64,000 nt of DNA. It comes from a phage. How positions within the stretch are numbered: position 1 is the stretch's first letter; each line of letters starts with the position of its first letter. Location of the stretch: the NCBI GenBank assembly GCA_018027755.1, contig GCA_018027755.1_4098.1; one strand, 5' to 3'. Of this stretch, positions 12,935-63,999 are shown in pieces. The notes beneath the pieces were generated by a model. The model was given only the letters and a program-made list of their open reading frames with translations, was not told the DNA's origin and did no database searches. Position numbers and translations under genes: made by a program.

Positions 12935-12963
12935 TGGGACAACTTATAAAAATATGATATAAT
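12935..12963 (+). promoter_or_regulatory. putative extended -10 promoter
   Basis: TGATATAAT (TGnTATAAT) upstream of ORF 12998-13243; -35 weak. Confidence 0.35.
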
Positions 12964-56906: not shown

Positions 56907-56994
56907 CGTGGGACAAACTGCTTTTTGGTGCTATAATAACATTGATGGTACAAGGATTGTACCTATTGGATTTAAACATGGAGAGTAAAATACA

Positions 56995-58860: not shown

Positions 58861-61008
58861 ATGCTAAACATTACACGTATATCTATGAGGAACTTCTTTT
58901 CATTTGGTAATGCACCACAATCAATTGATTTGAATGGTTCCGACATTTCATTAGTACTGGGTCAAAATAATGATGCAGTTATTGAAGGTGGTGACAGTAC
59001 CGGACGTCGAAATGGTGTAGGGAAAAGTGCTATTATTCAAGGATTAGTTTTTGGATTATTTGGTAAAAGTATTGGTAATGATATTAAAATTCCGAACCTA
59101 GTCAATAAAACTAATGGCAAAAATTGTGAAGTAGTTGTAGAGTTTGAAAAAGATGGTGTACAATATCTGGTTGAACGTGGGAGAAGTCCCACGTATTTCA
59201 ATTTTGTTACTTTAGGGAAAGATAATAAAATTGAAGATGAATCAAGGGGAGAAAAGAAAGACACACAAGAAGATTTGAATGAAATTCTTGGTATATCTCA
59301 ATTATTATTTGAACATATTGTAGTACTGAATGCTAACGTTGAACCTTTCTTAGCTTTATCCACACAAAAACAACGTGATATGATAGAAGAACTTCTTGGA
59401 ATAACACAGTTGACGGAAAAAGCTGAAATGCTAAAGGAGATGTATAAGGATACTAAACGTTTAGCCGAACAAGAAAAGTTCAAAAATGAAACTGTAGCTG
59501 CAAGTAATGAACGTATTCAAAAAAGTATTGAGACACTACAAGAACAGGCAAACCAGTTTGAAATTGATAAAAATAATAGAGTATCTAAGTTAAATGAAGA
59601 GTTGAATATATATAAAACTTTAGACTTTAATGACCTCTATGAAGCTGCTGATATAAAAGAGAAAGCTCTTATTCATAACGCAAAGCGTGGGGAAATCGAA
59701 CGCCGTGTACAAGAGTTGGCTTTAAAATTTGATGCATATGACCGTGAACTTGAAAGATCTAAAAGAGAATTAAATCTAAGCATTGATAAGCTAAAAACTA
59801 TTGATATTAGTGCAGAATTGGAAAATCATAATGAGTTGGAGATATGGAAACAGTTAGAGGGTATTCTAAAAGAGAATAATAACCAAAAACGTTTCAAAGA
59901 ACAAAAACTAAACTCACTAAAAATAGCTTTAAAAGGATATGAATGTTCAATTAATGCTGAAATTGACAAATTATCAACAGTTGAAAACAGCAAATGTCCA
60001 CTTTGTATGTCTGAATTAGAACATAACGAACATACTTCTTCAATTAAAGACAAAATCCAAAGTACTATTAATGATCTTCAAGCTAAAATTGATAGTTCTT
60101 CTTCTGAAATTGAAACATTACTTCAAGAAATTGATAGTATTGAGATTTTTGATATGCCACCTAAGCCTGTGACATATTATAATACACTTTCAGAAGCACA
60201 AATGCATGAACATAAGCTTCAAGAATTGGTCAGAAAGAGTGAAGAAGAACAAATAAACATCTATGCAAATGAACTTATGTCATCATATGATGAACTTAAC
60301 TCATATGAACTAATGGAAGTTCCAGATACATTAAACAAATATGAAGTTAAAGAGTTAGAAATGACTGTAAATTCATTATCACAGCAATTAGATCGTGAAT
60401 TGAAGACTACTAACACATTTATTAGCCAAATTAATACCCTGAAGACTGATTCTTTAGTACCAATCGATTATAGCGACTATAATAATCTTGATAAAATGTC
60501 AAATCACCAAGATTTCTTGGTTAAATTACTTTTAAACAAGGATTCTTATGTCCGTAAACGTATTATTGAGCAAAATATCTCATATTTGAATACACGACTT
60601 CAGTACTATATCGATATGTGCGGTTCTGAGCATAATGTTGTGTTTTTGAATGATTTGAGTGTTGAAATTGAGAAGAGTGGACAGTACTTTGACTATAAAC
60701 AGCTTAGTAGAGGTGAGCGTACAAGGGTAAACATCGCATTATCTTGTGCTTTCCGTGATACATATGAGTCATTATACCAAAGTATTAATATTCTTATCAT
60801 TGATGAGATGATTGACCAAGGTCTTGACTCGAGTGGTGTTCTACGTGTGTGGTCTATCTTCCAAGATATGGCTGCTGTACGTGGTAAGAACGTTTATGCT
60901 ATTTCCCACAGAGAAGAGTTACTATCTAAGACTGAAAAAATCCTCAAAGTTGTTAAAGAGGACGGTTTCAGTACTGTTGAATATGCAACCCTTGACGATG
61001 TTTTCTAA
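58861..61008 (+). CDS. gp46: recombination ATPase subunit, Rad50/SbcC-like (gp46)
   Basis: Walker A GVGKSAIIQG, long coiled-coil middle, signature LSRGERTRV, Walker B LIIDEMIDQGLD. Confidence 0.85.
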   Translation: MLNITRISMRNFFSFGNAPQSIDLNGSDISLVLGQNNDAVIEGGDSTGRRNGVGKSAIIQGLVFGLFGKSIGNDIKIPNLVNKTNGKNCEVVVEFEKDGVQYLVERGRSPTYFNFVTLGKDNKIEDESRGEKKDTQEDLNEILGISQLLFEHIVVLNANVEPFLALSTQKQRDMIEELLGITQLTEKAEMLKEMYKDTKRLAEQEKFKNETVAASNERIQKSIETLQEQANQFEIDKNNRVSKLNEELNIYKTLDFNDLYEAADIKEKALIHNAKRGEIERRVQELALKFDAYDRELERSKRELNLSIDKLKTIDISAELENHNELEIWKQLEGILKENNNQKRFKEQKLNSLKIALKGYECSINAEIDKLSTVENSKCPLCMSELEHNEHTSSIKDKIQSTINDLQAKIDSSSSEIETLLQEIDSIEIFDMPPKPVTYYNTLSEAQMHEHKLQELVRKSEEEQINIYANELMSSYDELNSYELMEVPDTLNKYEVKELEMTVNSLSQQLDRELKTTNTFISQINTLKTDSLVPIDYSDYNNLDKMSNHQDFLVKLLLNKDSYVRKRIIEQNISYLNTRLQYYIDMCGSEHNVVFLNDLSVEIEKSGQYFDYKQLSRGERTRVNIALSCAFRDTYESLYQSINILIIDEMIDQGLDSSGVLRVWSIFQDMAAVRGKNVYAISHREELLSKTEKILKVVKEDGFSTVEYATLDDVF

Positions 61009-61016
61009 TTAAAGAT

Positions 61017-61043
61017 AAAGGGAGCCTTAGCTCCCTTTTTTTA
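61017..61043 (+). terminator. bidirectional intrinsic terminator
   Basis: GGGAGC-CTTA-GCTCCC followed by TTTTTTTA; stop codon of the minus-strand gene lies in the loop. Confidence 0.7.
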
Positions 61044-61518
61044 TATCAACCATATTTAATTTACCGTCCTTAATCAGCTTTCTAGCTTGCTTTACACGAG
61101 CAGTAGTGTTACTACCAGGGACAACTCCTAACCCTTCCAGAATCGCGTTTTGCTGTGTTGCTGGAAGCCTTTTAAACTTATTAACATCCACAGTTAGTGC
61201 TGTGTGATGTATGACTTGCTCTTCAGGTGGAATGTTATTGTTCTTTTCAAGATAATCTGCCAGATTTCTTAGTACTTCATGAAGAGGTTTATCAGTTAAA
61301 TGGCCCAGACAGCGTTTAAATGAATTTGCGACCCTTCCTTCCCATCCATTCACCTCATTTTGAAGAACCTGTCTACAATGTTGATTTCCACCATGATAGT
61401 GGTCAAGTACTGGTTTAGTTATTTTTATTCCTATAATGGGGTCAATACCATTTTGTTTTTTTAGTAGTTCTTTTCTGTAAGCTGCTGCTTCATTGGGATT
61501 TTTCAATCTCTTTTTCAT
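61027..61518 (-). CDS. gp49: endonuclease VII-like (Holliday junction resolvase, His-Cys box)
   Basis: LDHYHGGNQHCRQVLQNEVNGWEGRVANSFKRC parallels the T4 endo VII LDHDH...LCNLCN zinc/His box. Confidence 0.6.
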   Translation of the reverse strand: MKKRLKNPNEAAAYRKELLKKQNGIDPIIGIKITKPVLDHYHGGNQHCRQVLQNEVNGWEGRVANSFKRCLGHLTDKPLHEVLRNLADYLEKNNNIPPEEQVIHHTALTVDVNKFKRLPATQQNAILEGLGVVPGSNTTARVKQARKLIKDGKLNMVDIKKGS

Positions 61519-61563: not shown

Positions 61564-62115
61564 GTGAGGTACACAAGAATAGCTAAAATTACACAACAAC
61601 AATTCATAGATAAATCAATGAATATTCATGGTAGTATTTACACATACAATAAAACAATATATGTCAATGCACACCATCCAATAACTGTTACGTGTAACAT
61701 TCACGGTGACTTCACAGTAGTTCCTAATAAACACATTTCTGCAAAACAAGGGTGTCCAGTTTGTTCAGACCAAGAACTAAAATCAAAACCTGTTATTGAA
61801 ATTCAGAATTTTTTAAAAACGTGTGATATAATGTTTGAAATGGAAAAGAAATTTGATAGTTGTAAAAACATCAATCATTTACCATTTGATTTTTATATTC
61901 CTGAACTTAATCTACTAATAGAATATGATGGTATCCAACACTTCAAACCAATAGAATACTTCGGTGGAGAAGAAGGTTTAGCTGAACAACAACGAAATGA
62001 TGAAATTAAGAATAAGTATTGTTATGATAATAATATTACTTTACTTAGAATAAAGTATTCAGATGACCACATTAAAATTATAAAAGACTTCATATCAAAA
62101 AATATAAATTATTGA
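61564..62115 (+). CDS. DUF559/Vsr-like PD-(D/E)xK nuclease-domain protein
   Basis: Motif FDFYIPELNLLIEYDGIQHF ... RNDEIKNKYCYDNNITLLRIKY; start uncertain (GTG 61564 or ATG 61618), no clear RBS. Confidence 0.45.
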   Translation: MRYTRIAKITQQQFIDKSMNIHGSIYTYNKTIYVNAHHPITVTCNIHGDFTVVPNKHISAKQGCPVCSDQELKSKPVIEIQNFLKTCDIMFEMEKKFDSCKNINHLPFDFYIPELNLLIEYDGIQHFKPIEYFGGEEGLAEQQRNDEIKNKYCYDNNITLLRIKYSDDHIKIIKDFISKNINY

Positions 62116-62127
62116 ATAGTTTTTATG

Positions 62128-62160
62128 AACCAAGTAATGTTTTGTTACTTGGTTTTTTTA
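62128..62160 (+). terminator. intrinsic terminator
   Basis: AACCAAGTAA-TGTTTTG-TTACTTGGTT followed by TTTTTTTA. Confidence 0.7.
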
Positions 62161-62227
62161 TACTTCAAAAATGTACTAAGTACTTTTTTATTTTTTTATG
62201 ATATTAGTGGGAAGATTTTAAAAATAG

Positions 62228-62236
62228 TGCTATAAT
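62228..62236 (+). promoter_or_regulatory. extended -10 promoter (TGCTATAAT)
   Basis: TGnTATAAT about 10 nt upstream of the GC-richer non-coding block. Confidence 0.4.
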
Positions 62237-62242
62237 GTTTGT

Positions 62243-62697
62243 TGTAGTAATGACAATCCTGTTGAATGCAGAAATGCATATAAATTAGAACCTGATCCTA
62301 TCGAAAATGTAGATGGCAGATGAGCAGTTCAACAGTGCGATGAGCAAAAGAAACCCGTTAGATGTGGGCATAGTTTGAACCCCTCACGGCAATGCGGCTC
62401 AATAAAGAACTCCGATAAGCATACAGAGAGTTCCTAGATAGACATATAAGGATCGCACCTTACCAGATTTGCTAAGGGAGTTTATTAAGTGATTTTAATA
62501 AACAGCCTGAAGTTTGATTGTATAGACTTTCAGGTGAGTGTCAGGATGATTAAGACTGACGACCGTTGCACATGACTGCGATAGAGAGAAACAGAGCAAC
62601 CCGCTTTCGTTCTTAATATATTTTTAAGAAATTCGCAATACAATAAATGCTGAAACCATCAGCGTCAAGAAATAGAGACTTCATTGTCTCTTTTTTA
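62243..62697 (+). ncRNA. candidate structured non-coding RNA (unclassified)
   Basis: About 450 nt with no ORF of 60 aa or more in any frame, visibly higher GC than flanks; promoter-like box upstream and AGAGAC-TTCATT-GTCTCT+T-run terminator at 62674-62697; several stem-loops incl. ATGCA-GAAA-TGCAT and CCTGAAGT...ACTTCAGG. Confidence 0.35.
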
Positions 62698-62914
62698 TTG
62701 TCTTCATTCCCCTGCGGGGGGATGAAAATGTCCTCAACAAATCCCGTCAAGTATTAAATCTTTTAAAGTTCTTTATAATTAATTTAATTAAATGAATATG
62801 AGTTACGTAGTAACGAATATTCTTCAGCTAACGAATGAAATGAGTTAGATGAATCCAATAATATTAAAATTAATCCTTTCATAATTCAATTCAAATAATT
62901 CTGTAGTTTAAAAC

Positions 62915-62945
62915 CAAAAAAAAACCAGCAACAATGTGCTGGCTA
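62915..62945 (-). terminator. intrinsic terminator (minus strand)
   Basis: Minus strand CCAGCA-loop-TGCTGG followed by T-run (A9 on plus strand). Confidence 0.55.
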
Positions 62946-62953
62946 TATGAAAA

Positions 62954-63163
62954 TTAGTGCTTCTCGTTTTGTTTTTTAATTTTTTTATTAAAAGACTTAA
63001 CTAATAAGTCTCTATCTATTAATGGCATATTAAGGAGTGTTCCATAGTCAATGTTATCCATATATACAGAACATTCCATTAGTGCATTTTTGATTTCTGA
63101 CTTATTCAGTTCTATCTCCTTCAGTACTTCTTGTATTTCTTCAGGAGATGACTGGAGAAGCAT
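62954..63163 (-). CDS. small hypothetical protein
   Basis: 69 aa; start overlaps upstream gene stop. Confidence 0.3.
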   Translation of the reverse strand: MLLQSSPEEIQEVLKEIELNKSEIKNALMECSVYMDNIDYGTLLNMPLIDRDLLVKSFNKKIKKQNEKH

Positions 63164-63999
63164 TACTCGAAAAAATGACTAGGATCATATTTTAGTCCAT
63201 CAATTTCCCATTGATGATTACATCCATCACATTCTACTTCCATACTATGAGATACACCAATTTCAAGTACTTCATCCATTTTTTCACGAATTAGTTTAAG
63301 TACTCCCTTCGATTGTTGTCCAAGCCATTCATTAATAAATTCTTTTTCAACTACTTCATCACCATCTGGTGTTATAATTTTTGCAATAACTCCACCAATC
63401 ATATCGAAGTTAAGTTGAGCCATGTTTTCAAATACTTCAGAAAATATTTTTACTTTTTCATCTTTATCAATATCAGCAGTTTCAAGAAACTTAGTCTTCT
63501 GCTGCTCACTGAACATGCGTTCAGCAAACGATGAATATTCTTTCCATGTCAGTGGTCTAAATTCTAAACGGAGTCCATTATCTAAATCAATTGATGGGAT
63601 TTCTTCAAATGCTTGTGCAGTTTCAAGAAGATATGATAGATTACGTTCAAATCGACCTTCTTTTTCACATTCAGGACATACAACGTTAATATCATATGTT
63701 TCTTCTTTAGAAGCAACTTTAATAGCAATAAGAAGCATTTCAACGTCATTTACATACAACTCATCAGCGTCAATTACATTAGGAACACAGTTTTCAATAA
63801 CACGGGATACTGCATCTCCGTTTAGTAACATATCGGGGGTATTAAGTGTCATTTCATCACGTGCACTACGTGCACAAACTCCACATTTGACACCTTTTGG
63901 ACCTAGAACTCCTTCTTTATAAGGAATAACGCCGTTTGTAACTAACTTAGTACTGATCTCTTCAATTTTAGTGTACTTAGCAAGTGGATTCATAGCCAT
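63163..63999 (-). CDS. hypothetical zinc-ribbon protein (may extend past window edge)
   Basis: Three CxxC pairs: CGVC, CPEC, CDGC; start codon sits at the last bases of the window. Confidence 0.4.
   Translation of the reverse strand: MAMNPLAKYTKIEEISTKLVTNGVIPYKEGVLGPKGVKCGVCARSARDEMTLNTPDMLLNGDAVSRVIENCVPNVIDADELYVNDVEMLLIAIKVASKEETYDINVVCPECEKEGRFERNLSYLLETAQAFEEIPSIDLDNGLRLEFRPLTWKEYSSFAERMFSEQQKTKFLETADIDKDEKVKIFSEVFENMAQLNFDMIGGVIAKIITPDGDEVVEKEFINEWLGQQSKGVLKLIREKMDEVLEIGVSHSMEVECDGCNHQWEIDGLKYDPSHFFE

Follow-up and report, generated by a model that had tools for sequence, protein, structure and literature searches.

Positions 62228-62697 of a 64,000-nucleotide stretch of phage DNA (NCBI GenBank assembly GCA_018027755.1, contig GCA_018027755.1_4098.1; hereafter the window) almost certainly hold a genuine structured RNA gene, read on the + strand. 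The original prediction for this region, a promoter-driven, non-coding and highly structured unit of phage RNA, was borne out: the promoter, the strand and the structure are conserved in a multi-copy family that has no conserved coding capacity and that matches no Rfam 15 family and no published description that we found. On balance, we favour the reading that the gene specifies an autonomous + strand RNA that acts through its tertiary fold in the replication phase, as the core of a ribonucleoprotein (RNP) or as a ribozyme-like catalyst. Host RNA polymerase would transcribe an RNA of ~450 nt, possibly longer, from ~62243 off a phage promoter, whose class also drives replication and nucleotide-metabolism genes of the phage, and this RNA would fold into two domains of ~15 helices that are locked by four pseudoknots (PK1-PK4). 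The copy in the window, which we call C1, belongs to a set of 4-5 syntenic paralogs per genome that arose by ancient duplication and persist throughout the RaK2-like jumbo phages. It would work in trans, as a folded RNA, in the replication (middle) phase rather than as an antisense RNA, a message or a DNA site.

The last 6 kb of the window are 99.5% identical to Escherichia phage EC22.5-2 and ~98% identical to 121Q, PBECO4 and phAPEC6; all four are RaK2-like jumbo myophages of ~350 kb that belong to the genus Asteriusvirus. The window itself derives from a 121Q/PBECO4-like coliphage of this genus. A distant blastn search found the region in 72 phage records, all of them from RaK2-like jumbo phages and each with 2-5 matching places. 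These phages fall into the genera Asteriusvirus, Eneladusvirus, Mimasvirus and Alcyoneusvirus or are unclassified relatives, and their hosts are Escherichia, Salmonella, Klebsiella, Erwinia, Yersinia, Serratia, Pectobacterium, Cronobacter and Xanthomonas. Orthologs of C1 lie in the same gap, between an endonuclease VII gene and a baseplate-hub gene, in 121Q, A4, EJP2, Hallingskeid, BF, pEa_SNUABM_19, CBB and GAP32, and the C1 site has an extra inserted open reading frame (ORF) in Munch and fHe-Yen9-04. In XbC2, Kaldavass and RaK2, the best match fell elsewhere, in a gap that precedes a hypothetical gene and a dam methyltransferase gene, which revealed that paralogs exist. The four copies in 121Q (Table 1) lie on one strand at a spacing of 55-112 kb, share ~70% mutual identity and occupy four unrelated gene contexts; GAP32 and BF have five copies each. 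Inside the 64-kb window, neither blastn with a word size of 7 nor a covariance model detected a copy besides C1. Pattern scans of IMG/VR returned only ~350 kb jumbo-phage contigs and fragments of them, with 4-5 copies per genome, and nhmmer recognized ~25 real homologs among the matches of the genome and metagenome scans, including three divergent ones (L253, L277 and L260). In the divergent metagenomic phage L253, too, the RNA and a baseplate-hub homolog converge, which makes the C1 arrangement an ancient one. The divergent copy in L277 (1-1800) lies between a truncated bacterial ORF resembling a major facilitator superfamily transporter and large phage tail-fibre-like genes, a context that could reflect a captured piece of a gene, the end of a prophage or a chimera of the assembly. 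A full-length copy was also seen on a 212 kb contig (L095) of a metagenome-assembled genome labelled 'uncultured Enterobacteriaceae bacterium', most likely a jumbo-phage contig swept into a bacterial bin. A further ~2 kb of 121Q without an annotated gene (135194-137161) is not a copy of this family.

The 5' boundary of the unit had been placed at an extended -10 box, TGCTATAAT, and this placement was right. Of 64 family copies, 62 carry TGnTATAAT, and nearly all of these 62 also have TG[AG][AG]A[CT] ~14 nt upstream, so the box in the window is not a chance match. A generic sigma-70 scan did not list the promoter at 62228, because its -35 element is not TTGACA. Transcription is predicted to start at ~62243-62244. 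The promoter matches the 'divergent RpoD-like' class, with the -35 element TGAAACG, that is associated with DNA-synthesis genes in the CBB and GAP32 genomes (PMC5259590). Promoters of the same class stand directly upstream of the ssb, primase, exonuclease and topoisomerase genes and of the DNA-polymerase region in 121Q, and because of this common class the RNA is probably co-expressed with the replication genes. Two further promoters of this class (TGGGACA-N14-TGnTATAAT) occur on the + strand of the window, at 12935-12963 and 56909-56937.

We derived structures by hand and scored them on MAFFT alignments of 25-27 distinct copies, with slid pairing partners and shuffles as controls. This comparison yielded ~15 helices and four pseudoknots in two domains (Table 1), and the structural covariation to which the original prediction had looked as a check was abundant. 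In the 5' domain (62250-62480), 87% of alignment cells were paired, as against 34-41% with slid partners; two-sided changes occurred in 37 of 53 pairs, and none of 500 shuffles did equally well. PK1 shows 5-9 complementary bases in 27 of 27 copies and occurs in ten or more versions, among them ACAACGG/CCGUUGU and CUGAAAGG/CCUUUCAG; the GTTCAAC motif that had been singled out earlier is real and serves as its loop partner. The GAAA hairpin described in the original prediction exists as well (62266-62279), at a place where all copies hold a variable hairpin. The proposed long-range pairing of GTGCGAT with ATCGCAC fared differently: the window copy has it, but orthologs do not keep it (UUCGCA stands at both sites in GAP32), and it is for that reason best read as chance complementarity; ATCGCA is the loop of H7. 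Many unpaired nucleotides of loops and junctions are invariant (the GAAAAUGUA loop, AAAAGAAACCCGUUAG, the CAUAGUUUG loop, AGAUAGACAUAU, AAGGGAG, GACCG and AAACAG), an abundance that resembles that of RNAs with a defined tertiary structure.

The 3' domain (62503-62673) had 93.4% of cells paired, compared with 37-51% when partners were slid, and 24 of its 31 pairs were compensatory. What had been reported as an 8-bp stem is part of the covarying hairpin H9, although its actual form is CCTGAAGT/ACTT(T)CAGG, with one extra T (62506-62513/62526-62534). PK4, formed by the loop of this hairpin, was paired in 99.4% of cells (20-43% when slid), with compensatory changes in five of seven pairs, and it holds in the divergent copies L253, L277 and L260. 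A covariance model of the 3' domain gave 156 bits for the window copy and 119, 114 and 79 bits for L253, L277 and L260, respectively. RNAalifold also proposed a long-range GAC/GUC pairing, in which the nucleotides are invariant or the register shifts, as it does with H12. An all-against-all scan of column covariation for extra tertiary pairs recovered only the known helices and was noisy from phylogenetic signal. The structure belongs to the + strand transcript, because the conserved G.U pairs would be C.A mismatches on the - strand. Computed folding of the region gave z = -3.2 for the + strand, with 0 of 100 shuffles as stable, and z = -1.9 for the - strand. The region is also GC-richer than its immediate flanks (0.37-0.415 inside 62228-62697 versus 0.18-0.31), as had been noted, and coding DNA nearby (60700-61400) is as GC-rich as the RNA region. 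The window copy carries the features by which we define the family: the promoter TGRRAC-N14-TGnTATAAT; a 5' domain with PK1, the H3/H4/H5 junction, H6, PK2 and the invariant AAGGGAG; and a 3' core of the form GACCGTTR-N17-23-GAAAC-N-G-N4-ACCCGC with PK3, P-b, P-c, P-d and PK4.

Table 1 Features of the RNA gene, its surroundings in the window and its copies in phage 121Q. Percentages are alignment cells paired.
Feature	Position	Strand	Evidence or remark
-35-like element TGGGAAG, class TGRRAC	62208-62214	+	~14 nt upstream of the -10 box
Extended -10 box TGCTATAAT (TGnTATAAT)	62228-62236	+	invariant in ortholog and paralog alignments
PK1: CTGTTGAA (62259-62266) with H4 loop TTCAACAG (62328-62335)	62259-62335	+	complementarity in all copies
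H2, variable hairpin with GAAA loop, between the PK1 strands	62267-62278	+	variable hairpin at this position in all copies
H3 hairpin, near-invariant loop GAAAATGTA	62292-62319	+	8 pairs, 7 compensatory; 92%
H4 hairpin	62324-62338	+	100%; 2 compensatory pairs
H5 branched helix, inner helices 62355-62389 and 62361-62385, conserved loop CATAGTTTGAA	62341-62401	+	covariation; outer helix 97.7%, 4 compensatory pairs; inner helices 91.9%, 4 compensatory pairs
H6 hairpin	62407-62433	+	99%; every pair compensatory
PK2: H6 loop AGCA (62418-62421) with TGCT (62470-62473)	62418-62473	+	91.8%; 3 of 4 pairs compensatory
H7 hairpin, loop ATCGCA	62447-62462	+	88.5%; 3 compensatory pairs
AAGGGAG, unpaired, Shine-Dalgarno-like	62474-62480	+	invariant save the final G (A in two copies); kept in divergent L253 and L277
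H8 hairpin (GTTTATTAA..TTAATAAAC), variable length	62480-62504	+	alignments; branched insertion of 60-100 nt here in other copies
H9 hairpin, CCTGAAGT stem, conserved loop TTGATTGTATAGA	62506-62534	+	compensatory changes in 9 of 9 pairs
PK4: H9 loop ATTGTAT (62517-62523) with ATACAAT (62638-62644)	62517-62644	+	covariation
H10 hairpin, conserved TAAGA(C) loop	62539-62561	+	98.7%; 2 compensatory pairs
Knotted core, most conserved part of the family	62565-62637	+	PK3, P-b, P-c and P-d
PK3: GTTGC/GCAAC, crosses P-b and P-c	62565-62569/62596-62600	+	100%; 3 compensatory pairs
P-b: TGCGA/TCGCA	62577-62581/62633-62637	+	100%; 4 compensatory pairs
P-c: GAGAG/CTTTC	62584-62588/62604-62608	+	100%; 3 compensatory pairs; one G.U in 26 of 26 copies
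P-d hairpin inside the core	62610-62630	+	94%
H12 putative hairpin (GCTGA..TCAGC), then invariant CGTCA	62649-62663	+	pairs in the window copy; register differs between subgroups
H13 terminator-like hairpin and T run	62674-62691, with T run to 62697	+	terminator scan; covariation
H14 hairpin TTCATTCCCC-TGC-GGGGGGATGAA, C-rich/G-rich, tandem U.G pairs	62703-62726	+	93.5%; one-sided changes only
Linear box CAAATCCCGTCA (also written CAAATCYCGTCA)	62738-62749	+	near-invariant in 25 copies
H15 hairpin, tandem G-A internal loop	62794-62822	+	judged by eye only; MAFFT misaligns H15
H16 hairpin	62828-62848	+	3 compensatory pairs, e.g. CAUUC/GAAUG, CAAUC/GAUUG, CUACC/GGUAG
Endonuclease VII gene	61027-61518	-	PHROG 423; upstream border of the RNA gap
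183-amino-acid (aa) homing-endonuclease-like ORF, neighbour outside the RNA	61564-62115	+	PHROG 559 (HNH endonuclease, E = 1e-50), PHROG 9084 (homing endonuclease)
69-aa ORF and baseplate-hub gene	hub 63163-63999	-	Pfam T4_baseplate; downstream border of the RNA gap
121Q copy C4	90.3 kb		after a sigma-factor gene
121Q copy C3	192.8 kb		upstream of a dam methyltransferase gene
121Q copy C2	247.5 kb		overlaps the dubious coding sequence 516
121Q copy C1	326.6 kb		orthologous to the window RNA

The 'strong terminator' of the original prediction, H13 with its T run, is a real and covarying hairpin, but its stem has only 6 bp, three of them G-C. Twenty of 25 copies have it, and in these it was paired in 99% of cells, with four compensatory pairs. 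The paralog groups C3 and C4 lack it, as do Kaldavass and XbC2; H13 is probably a leaky or isoform-defining terminator. All copies keep H14, the linear box and hairpins homologous to H15 and H16, which suggests that the functional RNA probably runs past 62697, at least as a read-through isoform. The 3' limit set earlier is thus probably too short, with conserved, covarying hairpins reaching to ~62848, and the RNA would extend to 62697 at the least and probably to ~62750-62850. H14 is kept in the divergent homologs, and its U.G pairs, present in 22 of 25 and 20 of 25 copies, argue for a + strand RNA rather than a DNA palindrome. The linear box is read in different frames in different copies and is therefore not coding.

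Such a layout raises the possibility of a cis-acting leader, in which the RNA would control read-through at H13 by antitermination or attenuation, or would process or stabilize a message by means of H14-H16. In many paralogs (for example BF_b, Yen_b, IMG32, 121Q C2-C4 and C1 of fHe-Yen9-04 with its methyltransferase gene), promoter, fold, terminator and hairpins are followed by a ribosome-binding site and a co-oriented gene that starts right after H16, and transcription must continue at C3 and C4, where the terminator is missing. There is also a precedent in phage HK022, which has two put copies, one per early operon. Like the RNA described here, put is present in more than one copy per genome, stands downstream of a promoter and upstream of a terminator, and has a covarying fold; however, put comprises ~70 nt and two stem-loops, whereas the jumbo-phage RNA has at least 430 nt and four pseudoknots, exceeds all known antiterminators and attenuators by far in size and degree of knotting, and at C1 has no co-oriented operon. 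From one paralog to the next, and often even among orthologs, the genes downstream have no relation to one another, and the C1 loci of most genera have no co-oriented gene yet keep the whole unit, including the distal hairpins, which argues against a mere 5' untranslated region. Nor did we find the coherent set of downstream genes expected of a riboswitch or leader: these genes differ, and C1 is without a co-oriented gene in most genera. As for an expression platform, 20 of the 25 copies have the terminator-like hairpin after the core, two paralog groups lack it, and no alternative anti-terminator pairing was found. We regard a leader function as unlikely.

No ORF of 60 aa or more overlaps 62228-62697, in agreement with the original prediction; the longest have 45, 37 and 36 aa. 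A conserved small coding sequence (CDS) in relatives, which had been named as evidence to the contrary, was not found: over 64 copies, the longest ORFs vary in strand, position and length, and indels between copies are not multiples of three and shift the frame. A small ORF starting from the Shine-Dalgarno-like AAGGGAG with GTG, or from an AUG after the G run, was considered and rejected, as start codons and frames vary. Public records place 1-4 'hypothetical protein' CDSs over RNA copies (121Q gene 516, L022 47799-47954; SHEFM2K; E9.1; JP4; Hallingskeid); they are not conserved between copies and are probably spurious. The idea that the region holds small coding genes or acts as a DNA-level element could draw on these annotations, since some records list 2-4 'hypothetical proteins' and gene 516 overlaps C2 of 121Q, and on the palindrome-like H14. 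We give it hardly any weight, because it is contradicted by covariation, with compensatory changes in helices and G.U pairs that are specific to one strand, and because neither the position nor the strand nor the frame of any ORF is conserved.

Searches against known RNA families were likewise negative. With Rfam 15, nothing relevant was found at the gathering score in the whole window, at E <= 10 in 61900-63100, or at E <= 0.1 in 12 orthologous and paralogous loci, L260 and ncRNA004 (a non-coding RNA) of phage PA5oct. No Rfam model of GOLLD, ROOL, OLE, raiA, HEARO, RNase P RNA or 6S RNA matched, and weak matches to small RNAs (Arrc14, CyaR and RyhB) are due to an unrelated - strand terminator at 62923-62944. 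ARAGORN listed no tRNA or tmRNA gene in the 64-kb window, and no IscB/TnpB-like gene adjoins any copy examined. The segment ACAGAGCAACCCGCUU bears what we take to be a likeness to RNase P CR-V, for which no model score gave support. Long conserved single-stranded segments had no antisense targets in 121Q or in the window beyond the paralogs themselves. The RNA is not described in the literature that we searched on RaK2, CBB, phAPEC6, UE-S1, fEgEco12 and jumbo phages generally, or in a 2026 preprint on ncRNA mining.

The original prediction had pointed to pairing reminiscent of the R/S elements of group I introns and to the nuclease genes nearby, and had raised an intron-derived or ribozyme-like element. 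T4-like phages do have several group I introns per genome, with the crossing helices P3 and P7, and the helix strands of the 3' core follow one another as a, b, c, a', c', d, d', b', an order faintly reminiscent of P3-P7-P3'-P8-P7'. The introns of td, nrdB and nrdD resemble the family in that they are several pseudoknotted RNAs of a few hundred nucleotides per genome with homing-endonuclease genes near them, and a homing-endonuclease-like ORF lies directly upstream of the RNA in the window. Nevertheless, the group I model RF00028 gave no covariance-model match at the locus (E <= 10) or at 12 homologous loci (E <= 0.1), and no other Rfam intron or ribozyme model scored at E <= 10. The element lacks flanking exons, each copy is preceded by a promoter of its own, the R/S-like pairing is not conserved, and no equivalent of the P4-P6 domain fits between the 'P3' and 'P7' strands, which are joined by 7 nt. 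The link to nucleases turned out to be incidental, as the endonuclease ORF is an insertion missing from most relatives, 121Q among them, and the three other 121Q paralogs lie in unrelated contexts. A group I-like ribozyme is therefore largely refuted and highly improbable; intron-derived explanations, like coding and DNA-site ones, are essentially excluded.

A more serious alternative is that each copy marks one origin of the ~350 kb genome, with the RNA from a middle-class promoter forming a persistent R-loop downstream and priming the leading strand. Placement or shielding of the primer would fall to the folded 5' part, and nucleation of the hybrid to the conserved GGGGGG hairpin. The 4-5 copies are dispersed, at 55-112 kb from one another in 121Q, and their promoter class is common to replication genes, just as T4 origins use middle promoters. 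The phage has a replication and recombination set of the T4 type, including UvsW, UvsX/Y, gp46/47 and RNase H; downstream of the folded core, a G-run hairpin and the box are invariant; and the DNA beyond the box is AT-rich in the window (GC 0.25-0.31). C1 adjoins the baseplate-hub gene, and ori(uvsY) of T4 lies near genes 25 and 26. In T4, ori(uvsY) and ori(34) share with the family a non-coding transcript, a replication-class promoter and several loci per genome, and RNA II of ColE1, with ~500 nt, is folded, depends on its structure and has a G-rich segment near its 3' part. No conserved pseudoknotted tertiary core is known from these systems, however, and known origin transcripts need no 400-nt fold with four pseudoknots and invariant loops; conservation of such a fold suggests that the folded RNA itself is functional. 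Furthermore, the other paralogs have no consistent AT-rich unwinding element, but instead hairpins and a gene that starts ~40-140 nt after the conserved unit; an intrinsic terminator precedes the G-run hairpin in most copies, and no iterons or repeats were seen. We think it improbable that the RNA is an origin transcript, about as much so as for a leader.

We thus return to an autonomous RNA that acts through its fold. To our knowledge, few large RNAs combine several pseudoknots with invariant junction nucleotides, and almost every class of such RNAs has proved to be a ribozyme, an RNP core or a self-assembling particle. As a tentative extension, which we hold to be possible and clearly less secure, the family may constitute a new class of large functional RNA, a ribozyme or RNP subunit that works on nucleic acids in the replication phase, in which the 4-5 paralogs, all differing in their PK1 sequence, would provide different specificities or build a higher-order RNA particle; in a variant of this proposal, they would be structured origin or primer RNAs that set the several replication origins of the 350 kb genomes. 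Several points weigh against the reading that we favour. The transcript, its ends and its abundance are predicted from sequence, and a role as RNP or ribozyme core is suggested by analogy with other large pseudoknotted RNAs, with neither a partner protein nor a substrate nor a catalytic motif to go with it. This reading leaves unexplained why all 4-5 paralogs are retained. An origin transcript is also compatible with the scattering of the copies, with their replication-class promoter and with the G-run hairpin, and the module of H14, box, H15 and H16 beyond H13, often before a co-oriented gene, fits a cis-acting or processing role too. Finally, the sequences that were aligned with MAFFT for the covariation counts are related, and of the two controls the shuffles ignore phylogeny whereas the slid partners do not.

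GOLLD and ROOL resemble the family in general character: they have hundreds of nucleotides, many helices and pseudoknots and conserved unpaired nucleotides, are phage-borne and independently transcribed, and have no linked protein gene. The family described here differs from them in that it does not match their Rfam models, has 4-5 diverged paralogs per genome, is confined to one clade of jumbo myophages of Gammaproteobacteria and, in the window, does not lie beside tRNA genes. The pRNA of phi29 is also a structured RNA encoded by a phage, and its self-complementary loop pair could mediate oligomerization; in the jumbo-phage RNA, PK1 is self-consistent within each paralog. The pRNA, however, has 174 nt, is single-copy and is tied to the packaging motor, and nothing indicates intermolecular pairing or a packaging role for the knotted RNA. 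The Pseudomonas jumbo phage PA5oct, a member of a related jumbo-phage clade, has four ncRNAs defined by RNA sequencing (ncRNA001-004, 236-619 nt), two of which are very abundant (PMC7318152). One of them, ncRNA004, stops just past a C-rich/G-rich hairpin and a CCCG..TAT..AAG box (PMC7318152); its end (MK797984, L322 1375-1435) reads UUUCCUUCCC-AAAC-GGGGAGGAAAU and then CCGCCCGAAUAUCAUAAG, and resembles H14 with the box. Comparison by eye, by nhmmer --max and by a covariance model showed no significant homology between ncRNA001-004 and the core of the knotted RNA.

The RaK2-like jumbo phages include therapy candidates against E. coli, Klebsiella, Salmonella and Erwinia, and in all GenBank records examined the RNA is unannotated or misannotated as small 'hypothetical proteins'. 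At a minimum, the family merits an Rfam entry and the removal of spurious CDS calls. If the copies mark origins, they would give a first account of how replication starts in these giant genomes; if the RNA is catalytic or forms an RNP, it would add a new class to a very short list. That a new pseudoknotted RNA of more than 400 nt is present in several diverged copies per phage throughout a jumbo-phage clade, apparently co-regulated with replication, would surprise specialists. The system is tractable, as 121Q or PBECO4 can be used in E. coli, copies can be deleted and the RNA is small enough for SHAPE (selective 2'-hydroxyl acylation analysed by primer extension) and cryo-electron microscopy.

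At its locus in the window, the RNA lies between opposite-strand genes and converges with the hub operon. Of the two nuclease genes named in the original prediction, the endonuclease VII-like one was identified correctly, but the label DUF559-like for the other found no support: Pfam gave only sub-threshold matches to the 183-aa ORF, DUF559 not among them, and PHROG assigned it to other families (Table 1). This ORF, which has its own terminator at 62127-62155, separates the endonuclease VII gene from the RNA promoter in the window phage and occurs in EC22.5-2, but is absent from 121Q, PBECO4 and most relatives, the matches of relatives on this side beginning only at query position 78. Salmonella phage Munch has a different ORF, of 957 nt, at the site of the 183-aa insertion, and Yersinia phage fHe-Yen9-04 has a methyltransferase gene inserted directly after its C1 copy; mobile genes seem to have a hotspot of insertion at the borders of the RNA gene. 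On the other side, the terminator at 62923-62944, a G+C-rich hairpin between an A run and a T run that serves the - strand operon of the 69-aa ORF and the hub gene, is kept at orthologous loci.

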